Source: an uncultured Clostridia bacterium
GTDB lineage: Bacteria > Bacillota > Clostridia > TANB77 > CAG-508
DNA length: 64,000 nucleotides
Direction: 5' to 3'
Assembly: GCA_946415375.1 (NCBI GenBank)
Contig: CAMKSF010000005.1
Span: forward strand, 621 to 64,620
In this document: piece by piece, positions 2,148-21,844 of the stretch
Layout: every line of letters starts with the position of its first letter
How positions within the stretch are numbered: the first letter of the stretch is position 1
Position numbers and translations under genes: made by a program
Notes under the pieces: generated by a model
Told to the model about the DNA's origin: nothing
The model's database searches: none
The model's input: the letters and a program-made list of their open reading frames with translations, nothing else

Positions 2148-2177
2148 AAATATCAGTTTTAAACTGATATTTTTTTA
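2148..2177 (+). terminator. rho-independent terminator after tRNA-Arg
   Basis: Perfect inverted repeat aaatatcagttt/aaactgatattt followed by a run of seven T residues. Confidence 0.6.
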
Positions 2178-2271
2178 TTATATATAAAAACTACCACCAT
2201 TTGAAATGTTCTAATGCACAAAATCGACATAAAACCATTGGAATAGTATAATAACATATAGGAGTTATAAC

Positions 2272-3037
2272 ATGAGTGATAATACTTTAACAGATGCAGA
2301 AAAAATTAGAGAGTATTTTAGAAACTTTTTAGATATATATGTTTTAGCCGCTAATAAATCTAAATTACCTGTCAATAAAGAACGATTACAATCAATTATA
2401 GATAACGCAGAATTTATGACCTTTGAAAGTTCTAATACAACAGGTACTTTTTCTGTAAATAGGAGTTTAATACAAGTTATTATAAATAACTTTTTAAAAA
2501 AATGGAGTTGATAGAAATAACTTCTTATTATTACATGAGTATGCATATTTAGATAGTGGTGTTAATGAAGATTTATTTGCAAACCAAAATGCGCTTTTAC
2601 AACGATTAAATTAGAAAGCTATGAAATCACAAGAAAAAAATGCAACAGGAATTAATGCTTATTATGTAATAATGCCCTTAGATGAAGTTTTAGCACAATG
2701 GACTTGTGAAGAATTAAACGATGCTTTAAACGGTAAAAAAAAAGAGAATACACGAAATTCCAAGCGGTCCATTAGATTCTAATGTAAAATTTTGATCTAT
2801 AAAGATATTAGAGAGTTTGCTACAGTTGTTCTAGCATCAGATAAAGGTATCTTTGATTCAATTCAAGGAAAAGACTTTGAAAAACTATGTCAAATAGGTA
2901 TTATATGTAAAGCTATATATAAAGAAAATGGTTTTTCTAATGCTACTGTTTCAAAAGAGGATGTAGAACAGGCATATTCTAGTATATACCAAGAATCTGA
3001 TTTTGGTGAAAACAGTGGTGGAAATGAACGTATGTAA
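2272..3037 (+). pseudogene. decayed gene broken into at least four short ORFs in different frames, immediately downstream of tRNA-Arg
   Basis: Successive ORFs of 79, about 38, about 52 and 81 aa occupy shifting frames with short gaps. The frame breaks coincide with A-runs (ttaaaaaaatgg; ggtaaaaaaaaag). Each piece has plausible protein-like composition and no ribosome-binding site of its own. Confidence 0.4.
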
Positions 3038-3450: not shown

Positions 3451-3723
3451 ATAATTATAGAACTTGTTCTAACACTTAAGTTATATTATGCAATTTAAAT
3501 TTTAAGATAGTAGTTTTAATTAACAACTATCTTTTTACTCTTCAATCAACTCTACAATATAGTCTTTCCAGTTTCTTATTGTCCAATATTTTATTATTTT
3601 TTTCATCTTATCATTTTTTGCTCTCTTCTTTCTGTAGGTATAAAGTGAATATTACATTTCTTTATGTATTGTTGAATAGTTTTTTTCTATCAGTCTATAC
3701 TAAAATCATAAGGATGTGATAAA

Positions 3724-5238
3724 ATGAATTCATTATGGATTTCCAAAGTAAAAAAATCTATAACAGAAAAGCAAATTGATGATAACTATTCTTCTGATGT
3801 TTGCATCATTGGTGCAGGAGTCACAGGATTAACTACTGCATATTATTTGGTCAAAAGTGGATTAAAAGTGATTATTATTGATAAATCAGGTATCGGTGAA
3901 AAAGCATCTGGTCATACAACAGCAAAAATTACTTTACAGCATGGTTTAATATATGATTATTTGATAAATACTTATGGTTATAATTTCGCTATAAACTATT
4001 TTAGGGCAAATAAAAAAGCTATATCAAATATAAAAGAAATAATAGATACTGAAAACATTGACTGTGATTTTGAGTTTAAAAATAATTATATTTACACAAC
4101 ATCCCAAAGCGAAATCACCAAAATTCAAAATGAGATAGCTGCAATTAATAACCTTTCAAATTCAGACTATGCAAGTTTTCTATCTGATGTTGATTTGCCT
4201 TTTAAAGTAGAAGGTACAATAAAAACCAAAAATCAAGCACAATTTAATCCAGTAAAGTATATGTACGGACTTGCAAACTCTATTTTAAATAGTGGTGGAC
4301 AAATATTGACAAATTCTCCTGTCTTTGACGTACAACAAAATGATACTGGATATATAACTTATTCGGGCGATTATGCAATAAAATCAAAATATTTAGTTAT
4401 TGCCTCCCATTACCCTTTCATTAATTTTCCTGGTTTTTATTTTTCAAAAATGTATCAATCAACTTCTTATGCAATTGCAATTGAAACAAATAAAAAAATA
4501 CCTGATGGAATGTATATAACTACATGTGATCCTATTTTATCTTTTCGTACAGCTAAGCATAATGAAAAAGATTTACTCATTTTATCTGGAGGAGATCATA
4601 AAACTGGTTATTCACCTGAAAGTGAGCTCTTTTATGGTTATAACTATTTAGAGCAAGAAGCAAAAAAATATTATCCTGATTGTAAAATATTATATAAATG
4701 GGATACTCGTGATTGCATAACTCTTGATAAAGTTCCATATATTGGTGAGTTTTCAAAGTTTATGCCGAATGCATATGTTGCAACTGGTTTTAACAAATGG
4801 GGAATGACCTCATCTAATATAGCTGCTAATATTATAAAAGATAAAATCTTAGGTCAAAAAAATATATTTGCAGACACTTTTGATTCTAGTAGATTTAAGC
4901 CTATAAAAAATAGAAGCGAACTAAAAAATATGGCCAGTCAAGTTTTTAAGTCATTTGTAAGCAATAGACTAAAAATCCCTGAAAAAGATTTGTCCTCTAT
5001 AAAAAATTATAATGGCGGTATTATCCACTTTAACGGAACTGATATTGGCATATATAAAGATAAAAATGGTAAGATTTATGCAGTTAACCCAACTTGTACC
5101 CATCTTGGTTGTTTGCTTACTTGGAATAATGTTGACAAAACATGGGATTGTCCTTGTCATGGATCAAGATTTGATTATAAAGGTAAAAACTTATACGATC
5201 CTGCTTTTAGAGATTTGGATACTTATGGAATAAACTGA
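3724..5238 (+). CDS. FAD-dependent oxidoreductase with a C-terminal Rieske [2Fe-2S] domain (YhfW-like)
   Basis: The N-terminal dinucleotide-binding motif is CIIGAGVTGLTTAYYL. The C-terminal Rieske motifs are CTHLGC ... CPCHGS. Confidence 0.8.
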   Translation: MNSLWISKVKKSITEKQIDDNYSSDVCIIGAGVTGLTTAYYLVKSGLKVIIIDKSGIGEKASGHTTAKITLQHGLIYDYLINTYGYNFAINYFRANKKAISNIKEIIDTENIDCDFEFKNNYIYTTSQSEITKIQNEIAAINNLSNSDYASFLSDVDLPFKVEGTIKTKNQAQFNPVKYMYGLANSILNSGGQILTNSPVFDVQQNDTGYITYSGDYAIKSKYLVIASHYPFINFPGFYFSKMYQSTSYAIAIETNKKIPDGMYITTCDPILSFRTAKHNEKDLLILSGGDHKTGYSPESELFYGYNYLEQEAKKYYPDCKILYKWDTRDCITLDKVPYIGEFSKFMPNAYVATGFNKWGMTSSNIAANIIKDKILGQKNIFADTFDSSRFKPIKNRSELKNMASQVFKSFVSNRLKIPEKDLSSIKNYNGGIIHFNGTDIGIYKDKNGKIYAVNPTCTHLGCLLTWNNVDKTWDCPCHGSRFDYKGKNLYDPAFRDLDTYGIN

Positions 5239-5855: not shown

Positions 5856-7613
5856 TTATTTTGCTTTATTTAAAAATTCCTCAACTTTCATTGCTCCAAT
5901 GTCCCCTTCTCCTCTTGAACGTACACCAACTGTATTTGATTCTTGTTCCTTATCTCCAATAATTAACATATATGGAACTTTTGAAAGTTGTGCTTCCCTT
6001 ATTTTATATCCTATTTTTTCACTTCTAGAATCAACTTCAACCCTTAAATTATGTTTTTGTAATTCTTCTTTTATTTTATTTGCATAGTCTAAATGTCTAT
6101 CTGCGATAGGAAGTATTTTAACTTGTTTTGGACATAGCCAGAAAGGTAGATTTCCTTTTGTTTCTTCTATTAAGAAAGAAATAAATCTATCTGAAGTTCC
6201 AAGTATTGCTCTATGGATTACAACTGGTCTATGTGCTTCTCCATCTTCACCTACATACTCTAGTTCAAATCTTTCTGGTAAAGCAAAGTCTAATTGACAT
6301 GTTGGAATCGTTACATCATGTCCAAGTGCTGTCTTAATCTGAATGTCAATTTTTGGCCCATAAAAAGCCGCTTCTCCTTCTGCTTCATAGAACTCTATAT
6401 CCAATTCCTTTAGTATTTCTCTTAACCCACTTTCTGCTGTCTCCCACATTTCATCATTATCTATATATTTTTCTTTATTTGCTTTATCTCTTAAAGAAAG
6501 TCTAAATTTAAAGCTATCTCTTGAAAATCCAAAGTCTTTTATATATACTTCAAAAATCAAATTAATTACTTTTCCAACTTCTTCTTTAATTTGATCTGGT
6601 CTTACAAAAAGATGAGCATCATTTTGACACATTTGGCGAACTCTTTCTAATCCGCAAACAGCACCAGAATTTTCATATCTAAAGTCATGTGCTAATTCTC
6701 CAATTTTTATAGGCAAATCTCTGTATGATCTCATATCACTCTTATATATTAACATATGATGTGGACAATTCATTGGTCGTAATACTAATTCTTCATTATC
6801 CATTTTCATCATTGGGAACATATCTTCTTTATAGTGATCCCAATGTCCACTAGTTTTATATAGATTTACTGTTGCTAAACTTGGTGTATATACGTGCCAA
6901 TATCCTAAAGCTAATTCTTTGTCTTGAATATATCTTTCTAAAACTCTTCTAATCGTTGCTCCATCTGGTAAATACATAGGTAATCCTGCTCCAACTAATG
7001 GATGTGTCATAAATAATTTTAAGTCTTTTCCTATTTTTCTGTGATCTCTTGCTTGTCTTTCTTCAAGAAGTGTCATATATTCATCTAACTCGCTTGCCTT
7101 TGGAAATGAAATAGCATAAATTCTTTGAAGCATTTTGTTTTTTTCACTACCCTTCCAATATGCACCTGAATTATTTAATAGTTTTACCGCTTTTACACAG
7201 CCCGTTGATGGTAAATGTGGTCCTCTACAAAGATCAGTAAATTCCCCTTGTTTATAGAAAGAAATTACTTCTCCTTCTGGTAATTCTTCTATAAGTTCAA
7301 CTTTATATGGTTCATCTTTTTCTTTCATTAATTTTATTGCTTCATCTCTTGGAAGTTCAAATCTCTCTATTGGTAAATCTTCTTTAATAATTTTTTTCAT
7401 TTCTTCTTCAATTTTTTCTTTGTCTTCATCTGTAAATGGTCTTTCGACATCAAAATCATAATAAAACCCTTCATCTATTGCAGGTCCTATTGCAAGTTTT
7501 GCTTTTGGAAATAATCTTTTTACAGCTTGTGCCATTATATGAGAAGTTGTATGCCAATACATACTTTCTTCTACTTCAGCTGTTTTTCCTCCTCCTAATT
7601 TGATTTTAAACAT
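5856..7613 (-). CDS. thrS: threonyl-tRNA synthetase lacking the N-terminal TGS domain
   Basis: 585 aa. Class II ThrRS motifs are present, including HTTSH (the editing-domain HxxxH) and HRAILGTSDRFISFLIEE, with an anticodon-binding tail. The protein starts only about 20 aa before the HxxxH motif. An AAAGGAGG ribosome-binding site sits immediately upstream, only 28 bp after the maf stop codon. Confidence 0.85.
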   Translation of the reverse strand: MFKIKLGGGKTAEVEESMYWHTTSHIMAQAVKRLFPKAKLAIGPAIDEGFYYDFDVERPFTDEDKEKIEEEMKKIIKEDLPIERFELPRDEAIKLMKEKDEPYKVELIEELPEGEVISFYKQGEFTDLCRGPHLPSTGCVKAVKLLNNSGAYWKGSEKNKMLQRIYAISFPKASELDEYMTLLEERQARDHRKIGKDLKLFMTHPLVGAGLPMYLPDGATIRRVLERYIQDKELALGYWHVYTPSLATVNLYKTSGHWDHYKEDMFPMMKMDNEELVLRPMNCPHHMLIYKSDMRSYRDLPIKIGELAHDFRYENSGAVCGLERVRQMCQNDAHLFVRPDQIKEEVGKVINLIFEVYIKDFGFSRDSFKFRLSLRDKANKEKYIDNDEMWETAESGLREILKELDIEFYEAEGEAAFYGPKIDIQIKTALGHDVTIPTCQLDFALPERFELEYVGEDGEAHRPVVIHRAILGTSDRFISFLIEETKGNLPFWLCPKQVKILPIADRHLDYANKIKEELQKHNLRVEVDSRSEKIGYKIREAQLSKVPYMLIIGDKEQESNTVGVRSRGEGDIGAMKVEEFLNKAK

Positions 7614-7641: not shown

Positions 7642-8232
7642 TTAAATAATATTTTCATTTTTTAATATATCATATAATTTACTTACTGGTAGACCTACTA
7701 TTGCCATATAGTCCCCTTCTATTTTTTCTACATGTACTCCAAATTCTTCCTGCATTGCATAGGCTCCCGCTTTATCTAATGCCTTTCCTGTATCTACCCA
7801 TTTTTCGATTTCTTCATCAGATATTTCTTTTAAAAATATTTTTGATTTTTCATAAGTTTTATATTCTTTATATTTTCCATTTTTATTAATAATAACAACT
7901 AACCCCGAGATTACCTCGTGGGTTCGATCACCCTCTAAAAGTTCTTTTATCATTTCTATTGCATTTTGCCTATCTTTCGGTTTTCCATATTTTTTTCTAT
8001 TTTTAACAACTAACGTATCTGCTGCAATTATCACTCTTTCACCATTTGTAATATTATTTACAGCTTTTCCTTTTAAATATGCAATTTCTTGAACTTGCTC
8101 TTCTATGGGTAAACTTTCATCTGCAATTTCTTCAACATCTCTTACAATTATTTCAAAATCTTTTGTTATCATTTTTAATAATTCTTTTCTTCTTGGTGAA
8201 CTAGAAGCTAAAATAATTCTCATTCTCCTCAC
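7642..8232 (-). CDS. maf: Maf-family nucleoside triphosphate pyrophosphatase
   Basis: Maf signature motifs are present: ILASSSPRRKELL, AADTLV and GAYAMQE. Confidence 0.85.
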   Translation of the reverse strand: MRRMRIILASSSPRRKELLKMITKDFEIIVRDVEEIADESLPIEEQVQEIAYLKGKAVNNITNGERVIIAADTLVVKNRKKYGKPKDRQNAIEMIKELLEGDRTHEVISGLVVIINKNGKYKEYKTYEKSKIFLKEISDEEIEKWVDTGKALDKAGAYAMQEEFGVHVEKIEGDYMAIVGLPVSKLYDILKNENII

Positions 8233-8480
8233 TTCCCTTCAAAAAAACACTCCTACAGATATTTCTATCTATAGGAGTGCTTATATTACACGGTTCCATC
8301 CATTATTTTACTTAATTATTAGATTATAACGTATCTTGCACGTCTAGTTTATTCGCTAGAAATATAAAGAGGTAGTTTTTCAAATAGTTTTACTTAAACT
8401 AGCTTACAGCCGGTGACTAGTTCTCTCTTAAAGCAATTTCTATTTTACTTTGTCTCTTATTATTTTTATCTTATGCTAAT
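8233..8480 (-). promoter_or_regulatory. candidate T-box leader (Thr-type) with its own promoter and an intrinsic terminator, upstream of maf-thrS
   Basis: On the minus strand a promoter reads TTGACA, 17-nt spacer, TAATAT (plus coordinates 8481-8509). The leader contains AAUAAUGGAUGGAACCGUG, which resembles the T-box consensus AAUUAGGGUGGNACCGCG; its UGGA matches the UCCA 3' end of the tRNA-Thr in this window. The terminator gcactcctataga...tctgtaggagtg plus TTTTTTT lies at 8241-8280, followed by a GGAGAATG start. Confidence 0.45.
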
Positions 8481-20132: not shown

Positions 20133-21011
20133 CTACTTCTTTATTATTAAATGATGTTCCTTTATTTCAATAGTTCTATCTTCCAAGTTCACCTCAAAAT
20201 AAACCCCATCTGGTATACCATCATCATTAATATTTTCGGTTAAAGAACCCAACACATAATAGTCCTTTCCATCTTCATTTAATTTCTTTGTCCAATGCTG
20301 ATGAGCAGAAAACACTGCCATAACGTTCTTATCTTTTTTTATAATATCTTTTATTATTTTTCTATTTCCTAATAATCCAACTTCTGGTTCAATCTCAAAC
20401 CAGTAATTTCCGGCTTGATTATCTTCAGCTAATCCAAAATGCGTAAATATTAAACAAGGTAATTTGTTTTTATTTAAATCCTCTTTAAACCATTTAATCT
20501 CTTTTTCTGAAATACATTGTGATTTATACAACCCATATATTTCTTCTTTTGAAATATTTTTAAACTTATTTAATATACTATCATCTATATTAACATTTTT
20601 TATTATATCTGTAGACAATATAATAAAATGATATCCTTCTAAATCAAAAGAAAATGTTGCATTTGGATATTCCATAATTGATTCAAGTGTTTCTCTTGAC
20701 TCTATTGTACGTAAATCATGATTCCCAATTACTGAATAAAACGGTGTTTTTATTCTTTTGAGTTTATTCCATATGTATTTGTAATTATTTAAATCTTGAT
20801 CATAATTAAACTGATCTTCGATTAAATCTCCTAAGCAAATACTTATATTAGGTTTAAACTCATTGTTAATTTTATCTATTAAAGTATCAACCAATACATC
20901 TGCATATTGTGTTAATTTTCTTTTTAAAACCCAATCAATTTTTTTCGGTCTTTTGTCTAGATAATGAATGTCAGAGAATAATATTAATTTTAGTTTTGTT
21001 TTATTTTCCAT
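20133..21011 (-). CDS. calcineurin-like metallophosphoesterase
   Basis: The LILFSDIHY and GNHD motifs are present. The six-frame ORF extends further upstream across the tRNA-Ser gene. The real start was taken as MENKTKL at 21009-21011. Confidence 0.65.
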   Translation of the reverse strand: MENKTKLKLILFSDIHYLDKRPKKIDWVLKRKLTQYADVLVDTLIDKINNEFKPNISICLGDLIEDQFNYDQDLNNYKYIWNKLKRIKTPFYSVIGNHDLRTIESRETLESIMEYPNATFSFDLEGYHFIILSTDIIKNVNIDDSILNKFKNISKEEIYGLYKSQCISEKEIKWFKEDLNKNKLPCLIFTHFGLAEDNQAGNYWFEIEPEVGLLGNRKIIKDIIKKDKNVMAVFSAHQHWTKKLNEDGKDYYVLGSLTENINDDGIPDGVYFEVNLEDRTIEIKEHHLIIKK

Positions 21012-21032
21012 ATTTGCACCTTTTTCAAAATT

Positions 21033-21124
21033 TGGCGGAGTGGGCGGGATTCGAACCCGCGGGCCGCTATTCACGGCTAACTGTTTTCGAGACAGCCTCG
21101 TTATGACCACTTCGATACCACTCC
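21033..21124 (-). tRNA. tRNA-Ser (anticodon CGA), class II with a long variable arm, CCA encoded
   Basis: Reverse complement reads GGAGTGG...GCTGT-CTCGAAA-ACAGT...long variable arm...GCGGGTTCGAATCCCGC-CCACTCC-G-CCA. Confidence 0.8.
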
Positions 21125-21214
21125 ATTTAAACAATATTTTAACATCTTTTTCTCTAGTCTTCAATATTTAATATATAAATTTTTAAATTTTTTTACAAAA
21201 AAGATAAAAAAGTG

Positions 21215-21243
21215 TTGACAAATCAAAAAAAATATTGTAGAAT
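21215..21243 (+). promoter_or_regulatory. sigma-70 promoter (TTGACA, 17-nt spacer, TAGAAT) for the tRNA cluster
   Basis: Consensus -35 and near-consensus -10 hexamers about 30 nt upstream of tRNA-Lys. Confidence 0.5.
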
Positions 21244-21274: not shown

Positions 21275-21350
21275 GGGCTATTAGCTCAGGTGGTAGAGCA
21301 CTTGACTTTTAATCAAGTTGTCCCGCGTTCGAGTCGCGGATAGCTCACCA
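21275..21350 (+). tRNA. tRNA-Lys (anticodon TTT)
   Basis: GGGCTATTAGCTCAG...CTTGA-CTTTTAA-TCAAG...TTCGAGT...ATAGCTC-A-CCA. Confidence 0.9.
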
Positions 21351-21381
21351 AATTATTGAATACCCGAAATGGTATTCCAAT

Positions 21382-21456
21382 GGCCCCTTGGTCAAGCGGT
21401 TAAGACATCGCCCTTTCACGGCGGAGACATGGGTTCGATTCCCGTAGGGGTCACCA
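21382..21456 (+). tRNA. tRNA-Glu (anticodon TTC)
   Basis: GGCCCCTTGGTCAAGCGGTTAAGACATCGCCCTTTCACGGCGGAG...GGGTTCGATTCCC...CACCA. This closely matches the canonical Firmicutes tRNA-Glu. Confidence 0.9.
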
Positions 21457-21465
21457 ATTTAATAT

Positions 21466-21777
21466 GCCACTTTAGCTCAGTTGGTAGAGCAACTGACTTG
21501 TGGGATAGATAAACAAAATGTTTATTTTGAACTATCTTGCACCTTTATAGGGAAACCTATAAAGTGGACATCGCTAATTCGGGGAAGACTAAGTTTTATA
21601 TATGTTAATCCCGAGCTAGAAAATTTATTTTCGAGTGTAGAGACTTTATACGATGTGCCTAAGGTTTAATACTATGGCAAAGAGAAAGTCCAGACCGCAA
21701 ACATATTTATTATGGCAATGAAAATTGTAGTGGTATGAATCAGTAGGTCGTCCGTTCAAGTCGGACAAGTGGCTCCA
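21466..21777 (+). tRNA. tRNA-Thr (anticodon TGT) interrupted after anticodon position 36 by a 236-nt insertion; exons 21466-21501 and 21738-21777
   Basis: The 5' exon GCCACTTTAGCTCAGTTGGTAGAGCAACTGACTTGT and 3' exon AATCAGTAGGTCGTCCGTTCAAGTCGGACAAGTGGCTCCA join into a 76-nt cloverleaf. The acceptor stem GCCACTT/AAGTGGC pairs perfectly and the anticodon loop reads CTTGTAA. Confidence 0.7.
21502..21737 (+). ncRNA. putative self-splicing group I intron within tRNA-Thr
   Basis: The upstream exon ends in U and the insertion ends in G, as expected for a group I intron. Internal sequences resemble group I core elements: a TTTATAGG-GAAA-CCTATAAA hairpin with a GNRA tetraloop, GGGGAAGACTAAG (R-like, P7 5' strand) and AAAGAGAAAGTCCAG (S-like, P7 3' strand). 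No homing-endonuclease ORF is present. Confidence 0.6.
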
Positions 21778-21844
21778 TATTGTCAATAGTTTTGAGATGT
21801 CTCTTAATTGTTGGCTTTTTTTTATTGTATAAGGAGGAACTATA

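Follow-up and report, generated by a model that had tools for sequence, protein, structure and literature searches.

A compact group I-like intron in the anticodon loop of a Clostridia tRNA-Thr(UGU) gene, with same-site relatives in a second phylum and on viral contigs

A 64,000-nucleotide stretch of DNA from an uncultured, low-GC Clostridia bacterium of gut or rumen, hereafter called the window (27% G+C), raises a simple question: which tRNA reads the commonest threonine codon of its genes? ACA accounts for 437 of the 667 threonine codons in 25 long open reading frames (ORFs) sampled from the window, and a tRNA-Thr carrying the cognate anticodon UGU must therefore be heavily used. Default ARAGORN applied to the whole window finds seven other tRNAs and makes no call at positions 21466-21777, and an Rfam search at gathering thresholds returns only the same seven, its tRNA model missing the gene in question. 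At these positions, on the forward strand, lies a tRNA-Thr(UGU) gene in which 236 nucleotides are inserted within the anticodon loop, between positions 36 and 37. We are highly confident that the gene is functional and that the insertion between U36 and A37 is an ORF-less group I intron of the compact type found in bacterial tRNA genes (IC3-like and Azoarcus-like).

When introns are allowed, ARAGORN reports tRNA-Thr(tgt) with a 236-nucleotide intron, "cttgt-Intron-aatca", at positions 36-37. The two exons hold the halves of the acceptor stem, GCCACTT and AAGTGGC, and when joined they give a perfect 76-nucleotide cloverleaf with anticodon UGU and an encoded CCA (ARAGORN on the spliced sequence). 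This tRNA is nearly identical to the uninterrupted tRNA-Thr genes of relatives, with a single T-loop and a single D-loop difference. An initial annotation of the window had proposed complementary acceptor halves flanking a 236-nucleotide, ORF-less, group I-like intron, preceded by a U and ending in a G. Both bases are present, and the arrangement agrees with the sequence, with the intron-aware tRNA search, and with the empty site of a relative (contig L238) described below. It had also called this the only tRNA-Thr in the window; indeed, neither the default nor the intron mode of ARAGORN reveals another within the 64 kb.

What kind of insertion is this? A local Rfam scan of positions 21400-21850 matches RF00028 (Intron_gpI) over 21513-21712 with 42.9 bits and an E-value of 9.8e-10, which becomes about 1e-7 at the scale of the whole window; the matched segment is AT-rich, with a G+C fraction of 0.34. 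Folding by hand, which the initial annotation had also suggested, yields a complete P1-P9 structure in which all pairs are canonical (Table 1). Specifically, exon bases U34, G35 and U36 pair in P1 with the guide G-C-A, and a U36·G wobble falls at the 5′ splice site. This wobble (U21501·G21539) is U·G in all 30 distinct sequences of the alignment presented below, while neighbouring P1 pairs covary. In P7, G21640 and 21642-21647 pair with 21685-21691, leaving A21641 bulged, and its 5′ strand region would form the guanosine-binding site. The J6/7-P7 5′ strand matches the consensus GUAGAGACU of Rfam and of Williams 2020 (bioRxiv 10.1101/2020.01.27.920355). The GNRA-capped hairpin seen in the initial annotation is P2, TTTATAGG-GAAA-CCTATAAA at 21544-21563. 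Its assignment of the core elements R and S stands for one strand only: S is indeed AAAGUCCAG at 21685-21693, the 3′ strand of P7, whereas R had been placed on AGACUAAG at 21587-21594, which is the receptor-like 5′ strand of P5; the true R element is the J6/7-P7 5′ strand listed in Table 1.

The architecture is compact. P2 stands alone between P1 and P3, P5 is a simple hairpin, J7/3 comprises three or four nucleotides, and the hand fold contains no P2.1, P5abc or P7.1/P7.2. P9b is capped by a GAAA loop at 21720-21723. The canonical 11-nucleotide GAAA receptor in P8 was found by pattern search, and the receptor-like motif in P5 was read by eye, by analogy with P5 of the Azoarcus intron. By this architecture and these two tetraloop-receptor pairs, the insertion as modelled is a compact IC3-like group I intron. 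No ORF with a domain lies inside 21502-21737, in accord with the earlier remark that a homing-endonuclease ORF is absent, and the P5 loop, only 7 nucleotides long, holds no ORF remnant. Within P1, the UUUGAAC strand on the 3′ side of the internal loop (21525-21533; pre-tRNA positions 60-68) is nearly invariant beside a freely varying P1a, and it may serve in a tertiary contact or in selecting the 5′ splice site.

Table 1. Features of the split tRNA-Thr(UGU) gene, its intron and its transcription unit. Coordinates are positions in the window; helices are those of the hand fold.
Feature	Position	Strand	Remarks
Promoter-like site	21215-21243	+	TTGACA, 17-nt spacer, TAGAAT; consensus scan, 11/12 matches; putative function
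tRNA-Lys(UUU)	21275-21350	+	ARAGORN and Rfam
tRNA-Glu(UUC)	21382-21456	+	ARAGORN and Rfam
Exon 1	21466-21501	+	36 nt, GCCACTTTAGCTCAGTTGGTAGAGCAACTGACTTGT, ending ...ACTGACTTGT; acceptor 5′ strand, D arm, anticodon-stem 5′ strand, loop CU-UGU, ending in U36 (the -1 U)
Group I intron (insertion)	21502-21737	+	236 nt, GGGATAG...GGTATG; no ORF; compact, IC3-like
P1	21499-21508 / 21532-21541	+	3 pairs with compensatory changes; recovered by RNAalifold
P1a	21509-21525	+	Variable hairpin within the P1 loop; compensatory changes in 6 pairs
P2	21543-21564	+	GAAA tetraloop L2 (21552-21555) invariant; 5 of 9 pairs with compensatory changes
P3	21568-21573 / 21651-21656	+	ACAUCG / CGAUGU; one pair U-A to C-G in 9 sequences, others invariant
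P4	21579-21584 / 21609-21614	+	Invariant; A-rich J4/5 and J5/4
P5	21587-21606	+	Tetraloop-receptor-like ACUAAG...UAUGU; one pair A-U to G-C in 11 sequences
P6/P6a	21615-21636	+	Hairpin; 5 pairs with compensatory changes
J6/7 and P7 5′ strand (R)	21637-21648	+	GUAGAGACUUUA; invariant in the family
P8	21657-21678	+	Hairpin; 11-nt GAAA receptor, CCUAAG 21658-21663 and UAUGG 21673-21677
J8/7, P7 3′ strand (S), then AG	21679-21693	+	AAAGAG and AAAGUCC; aligns to Rfam consensus AAGAUAUAGUC; invariant
P9 three-way junction	21694-21734	+	P9 21694-21698/21730-21734; P9a 21703-21713, variable; P9b 21715-21728
Terminal (omega) G	21737	+	Preceded by AUG; boundary fixed independently by intron-less L238
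Exon 2	21738-21777	+	40 nt, AATCAGTAGGTCGTCCGTTCAAGTCGGACAAGTGGCTCCA, running AATCAGTAGG...AAGTGGCTCCA; A37, A38, anticodon-stem 3′ strand, variable loop, T arm, acceptor 3′ strand, discriminator U, encoded CCA
Terminator-like hairpin and T8	21782-21815, 21816-21823	+	RNAfold -13.6 kcal/mol, followed by eight T; putative function

The hand structure was evaluated on an alignment of 32 homologous pre-tRNAs from different species (30 distinct sequences), with slid pairing partners and 500 shuffles as controls. Pairing is retained in 97.8% of cells, compared with 36-39% in the slid controls, and 31 pairs change on both sides, compared with 6-8; none of the 500 shuffles attains these values for pairing or covariation. 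The helices with compensatory changes are P1, P1a, P2, P3, P5, P6a, P8 and P9a, together with the acceptor and T stems. In P8, for example, closing pairs change from G-C to A-U in 11 sequences and from C-G to U-A in two. P9a covaries, and P9 and P9b are invariant. RNAalifold was run without knowledge of the hand fold and is unable to represent the P3/P7 pseudoknot; it arrives at the cloverleaf, at P1 including the U·G, and at P2, P4, P5, P8, P9 and P9b.

Relatives of the split gene are common. A scan of one genome per GTDB species, with a pattern that joined the P7 3′ strand to the 3′ end of the intron and the first bases of exon 2, returned 54 loci. Among these are 31 complete tRNA-Thr(UGU) genes split at 36/37, with introns of 216-245 nucleotides, in metagenome-assembled genomes (MAGs) of uncultured Clostridia, Clostridium or Lachnospiraceae from gut and rumen; five further Clostridia loci are copies truncated at contig ends. 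The search pattern fixed part of the J8/7-P7 3′ strand stretch and the terminal G, such that family invariance there is partly imposed. Locus order is shared with the window (tRNA-Lys, tRNA-Glu and tRNA-Thr, then SDR, CBM and VanW genes). In the loci closest to the window (L170, L165 and L173) the pre-tRNA region is 96-97% identical and the flanking genes 74-85%. At several loci (L124, L131-L133, L135, L136, L138, L140, L150, L158, L161, L165 and L167) the intron mode of ARAGORN additionally placed a 'tRNA-Stop(tta)', with an 'intron' of 56-103 nucleotides, immediately upstream of tRNA-Thr; the call is spurious and results from the neighbouring tRNA-Lys and tRNA-Glu genes being read as one.

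The intron is absent from other relatives with precision. At least 120 metagenome contigs match the tRNA-Thr gene in its spliced form, and more than 80 of those listed carry the same SDR, CBM or VanW neighbours. The closest among the matches listed, L238, has an SDR protein 81.6% identical to that of the window and the same tRNAs for Ser, Lys and Glu. Its tRNA-Thr(UGU) gene is uninterrupted: exon 1 aligns base for base, precisely 236 nucleotides are missing between ...CTTGT and AATCAG..., and the gene resumes at A37. A second contig, L262, is likewise uninterrupted (...CTTGT|AATCAG...) at the syntenic locus, and the intron-less sequence reads CAACTGAYTTGTAATCAGTAGGT. The bases of L238 that flank the junction differ from the intron ends, and the intron boundaries are therefore exact and cannot be shifted.

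How long has the intron resided at this site? A neighbor-joining (NJ) tree of the neighbouring SDR gene interleaves loci with and without the intron. Across 26 loci that carry the intron, intron distance correlates with host SDR distance (Mantel r 0.72), and none of 5000 permutations gives a value as high. Exon and intron variants also travel together, such that the GCCGCTG acceptor type occurs with the ACACCG form of P3. We read this pattern as that of an intron that is old in this Clostridia lineage, mostly inherited vertically, with several precise losses (or gains) in close relatives.

The intron very probably splices itself out, its catalysis being predicted from the conserved core. In the mechanism that we propose, the Lys-Glu-Thr cluster would be transcribed from the promoter-like site to the terminator-like hairpin and its T8 tract (21215-21243 to 21782-21823), and the intron would fold into P1-P9, with the L2 GAAA loop docking in the 11-nucleotide receptor of P8 and the L9b GAAA loop in the receptor-like motif of P5. 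The last three bases of exon 1, UGU, would pair with the guide GCA and set U36·G at the 5′ splice site, where free guanosine bound in P7 would attack after U21501. The terminal G21737 would then take the place of guanosine in the P7 pocket, and the freed 3′-OH of U36 would attack the 3′ splice site. Ligation of the exons would produce the mature loop CUUGUAA, the anticodon stem holding the exons together throughout. Exon pairing within the anticodon stem is said to have been reported by Zaug et al. in 1993 (cited in PMC3984707) to aid the splicing of tRNA introns.

A close known counterpart of this arrangement is the intron of tRNA-Ile(CAU) in Azoarcus sp. BH72 (IC3; 'Ile2.5Ug'). Both introns are inserted at 36/37, with three base pairs of P1 contributed by the exon and a U·G wobble, and both have a compact, ORF-less core of about 200-240 nucleotides. 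They also have in common an L2 GAAA loop with a CCUAAG/UAUGG receptor in P8, a P5 receptor motif for the GAAA loop of L9, and GUAGAGACU as J6/7-P7. In contrast, the Azoarcus intron resides in a tRNA for Ile-CAU rather than Thr-UGU and in a different phylum, and its overall similarity is marginal (E 9e-4, 65% global identity). Unlike the Azoarcus intron, that of the window is AT-rich, carries an additional hairpin inside the P1 loop, and ends in a three-way P9/P9a/P9b junction instead of a simple P9. A compared tRNA intron at 34/35 belongs to the same self-splicing family and shares the catalytic core, and differs in site, tRNA and lineage.

Closer relatives exist among published bacterial introns. 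In Williams 2020 (bioRxiv 10.1101/2020.01.27.920355), split tRNA genes of bacteria number 5,292 and fall into 21 settings; Thr.5Ug and Thr.3Ug introns are among the aligned seeds. In nhmmer comparisons with these seeds, the window intron matches Arg.5Ug (7e-13), Thr.3Ug (2e-12), Met.2Ug (2e-9) and Azoarcus (9e-4). Of the published sequences tested, the Arg.5Ug seed (Bbo3) comes closest (72% identity) and shares the P9/P9a/P9b layout and the ...GUGGUAUG 3′ end. Members of the Thr.5Ug and Arg.5Ug classes, including the Agrobacterium-type tRNA-Arg(CCU) intron, are inserted after position 36, have a U at -1 and end in G. The class name Thr.5Ug thus already covers a tRNA-Thr split at this position, although its seed (Rba53) derives from a GGU isoacceptor in a GC-rich genome and nhmmer reported no match to it.

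These comparisons also overturn the view, expressed in the initial annotation, that a low-GC Gram-positive bacterium with an intron of this kind would be out of the ordinary. That view is outdated: beyond the Thr.5Ug class in the 2020 survey, a survey of complete genomes (PMC13011429) describes 333 bacterial tRNA introns in 18 phyla, 81% of them of subgroup IC and most without endonuclease genes, and the present scan adds at least 31 Clostridia and at least 17 Rhodobacteraceae species genomes. A Fusobacterium genome paper (PMC1924603) describes only IStrons and mentions no tRNA introns. The window intron is thus a real, well-conserved and ordinary member of a class already catalogued in bacteria, and it leaves knowledge of group I introns unchanged.

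Where else is the same site occupied? In 17 Rhodobacteraceae genomes, a GC-rich homologue, about 250 nucleotides long, interrupts tRNA-Thr(UGU) at 36/37 (L122, L126, L137, L139, L142-L144, L151, L153-L155, L157, L162, L169, L171, L172 and L174), the hosts including Ruegeria, Roseovarius, Tritonibacter mobilis, Paracoccus rhizosphaerae, Sulfitobacter brevis and Roseivivax halodurans. A Maricaulaceae MAG (L156) has a truncated match that may represent a further copy. A search of IMG/VR contigs with a generic and very broad IC3-core pattern gave at least 120 matches (L001-L120), two of which also carry a tRNA-Thr(UGU) split at 36/37: L084 at 2148-2809 (-), with an intron of 584 nucleotides, and L045 at 3674-4332 (-), with one of 581. 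These introns have the tRNA, the site and a homologous core in common with that of the window; they differ from it by a short P1 without P1a and by a P5 loop that contains an ORF for a 138-amino-acid HNH endonuclease (Pfam HNH 23 bits; PHROG HNH E 3.5e-19). L045 also encodes 14 tRNAs, a tmRNA and a tail protein within 10 kb.

Labels from the intron mode of ARAGORN were re-read by eye for a U at -1 and a terminal G. Those given to L084 and L045, 'Tyr(gta)', and to the Rhodobacteraceae genes, 'Ile(tat)', proved wrong, and both are tRNA-Thr(UGU). The same mode assigns the split tRNAs among the listed viral contigs to about 41 Leu-UAA and about 20 Arg-UCU genes, plus Met, Thr and Asn. Introns of tRNA genes may be under-described on phage contigs, and some of these uncultivated viral genomes (UViGs) could be host DNA.

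These occurrences lend some weight to a recent horizontal arrival, in which a phage tRNA-Thr(UGU) gene with an HNH-encoding intron homed into the host gene, the ORF was then deleted, and such gains were repeated. Two viral contigs hold HNH-encoding introns at this very site; among the viral matches listed, one of the two, L084, resembles the window intron most closely (E 5e-27); and Rhodobacteraceae, where the site is also filled, belong to a different phylum. The interleaving of loci with and without the intron, together with the absence of the intron from L238, the closest syntenic contig listed, would fit as well, although the tree is an NJ tree of a single 239-amino-acid gene and thus weak evidence for patchiness. 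However, the Mantel correlation fits co-divergence and not recent spread, and the intron variants are linked to exon variants. Moreover, the 7-nucleotide P5 loop retains no trace of the ORF, and blastn against GenBank phages yields a match to the exon only, with no similar intron in these isolated phages. On balance, we consider a recent horizontal arrival unlikely.

A broader proposition seems to us similarly doubtful: that position 36/37 of tRNA-Thr(UGU) is a live homing site shared by phage and host tRNA genes, from which HNH-armed introns seed unrelated phyla such as those of gut Clostridia and marine Rhodobacteraceae, the ORF being lost and the ribozyme persisting over long times. If true, phage tRNA genes would be a vector for bacterial tRNA introns, contrary to a 2014 review in which all phage introns then known lay in protein-coding genes (PMC3984707).

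Several points weigh against the reading of a functional gene with a self-splicing group I intron. The 42.9 bits of the RF00028 match fall short of the curated gathering score of 50, such that the scan proposed in the initial annotation gave a locally significant hit below the family cut-off, and the match vanishes under the filters of a whole-window E-value search. For comparison, none of the 12 Rfam group I seed sequences is bacterial, according to Williams 2020 (bioRxiv 10.1101/2020.01.27.920355). P4, P7, P9 and P9b never vary in the alignment and therefore carry no information on pairing, and their invariance is partly imposed by the search pattern. RNAalifold additionally offers an invariant UGGAC/GUCCA pairing (21565-21569 with 21688-21692) that competes with the P7 3′ strand. 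We did not adopt this pairing, since it is invariant and conflicts with the P7 common to all group I introns; it may reflect another fold open to the pre-tRNA, or chance. Finally, splicing, its dependence on GTP and the mature tRNA are deduced from sequence, and the window covers 64 kb of a genome in which a second, intact tRNA-Thr(UGU) gene may exist.

From the low Rfam score, from splicing predicted in this way and from the 64 kb in view, one could construct a disrupted pseudo-tRNA, in which a decayed intron no longer splices and ACA and ACG are decoded by a copy elsewhere. Decay would be difficult to reconcile with intact exons and with an intron core that is invariant in at least 31 species whose flanking genes have diverged to 65-85% nucleotide identity, or with helices that keep pairing through compensatory changes. 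The U·G wobble, the terminal G (fixed by the search pattern), both GAAA loops and both receptors are likewise invariant, and the codon that this tRNA reads is the dominant one for threonine. We therefore reject the pseudo-tRNA reading as highly improbable.

Other kinds of element were raised only because default tools are silent at the locus: a group II intron, a bulge-helix-bulge (BHB) intron of the archaeal type, an insertion sequence (IS), a miniature inverted-repeat transposable element (MITE), or an insertion arising from a split or permuted tRNA. Nothing was found in favour of any of them, and all are effectively refuted, with next to no probability left to them, by a local Rfam scan free of any other significant family, by covariation, by the lack of a transposase or reverse transcriptase ORF in the insertion, by a 236-nucleotide group I core located at 36/37 rather than the 37/38 BHB site, and by an empty site in L238 that is precise and without target duplication.

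A functional tRNA-Thr(UGU) gene with a group I intron has practical consequences. Both default tRNA finders and the Rfam gathering cut-off miss the split gene, and genomes of this Clostridia lineage will thus appear to lack tRNA-Thr(UGU); estimates of tRNA complement and of MAG completeness are therefore distorted. The locus also offers a natural series, comprising alleles with and without the intron at one syntenic site, as well as ORF-less and HNH-encoding versions in two phyla and on viral contigs, that can be used to study the gain, loss and long-term retention of tRNA introns.

The initial annotation had further supposed that a neighbouring T-box is tuned to this tRNA. The sole T-box-like match in the window, at 8270-8465 (-), lies 13 kb from tRNA-Thr and scores 51.5 bits against a gathering score of 93; standard annotation would miss this leader, since it falls below the Rfam cut-off. 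It precedes maf (7642-8232, -) and thrS (5856-7613, -), which encodes a threonyl-tRNA synthetase (ThrRS) of 585 amino acids in which no match to the TGS domain was found. Read by eye, the specifier loop contains ...GAAAAACUAC..., where the specifier is most plausibly ACU followed by A. ACU is a threonine codon and not the exact complement of UGU, with which it would pair only through a U·U wobble. Thus the supposed tuning fails on distance and on a specifier of ACU instead of ACA, and only the UGGA bulge of the antiterminator, which fits the discriminator U of tRNA-Thr(UGU), agrees with it.

At the tRNA locus itself, the co-oriented genes for tRNA-Lys, tRNA-Glu and tRNA-Thr are probably expressed as one transcript, and the terminator-like hairpin downstream of tRNA-Thr is kept in L238 and L173. 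Farther upstream, a mechanically predicted 343-amino-acid Metallophos ORF with a TTG start (20133-21164, -) overruns the tRNA-Ser(CGA) gene at 21033-21124 (-); because of this overlap, its true start should lie downstream of that tRNA. The spacer between tRNA-Lys and tRNA-Glu contains a 7-base-pair inverted repeat, GAATACC...GGTATTC (21358-21377), that is also present in L238 and may be a processing signal.

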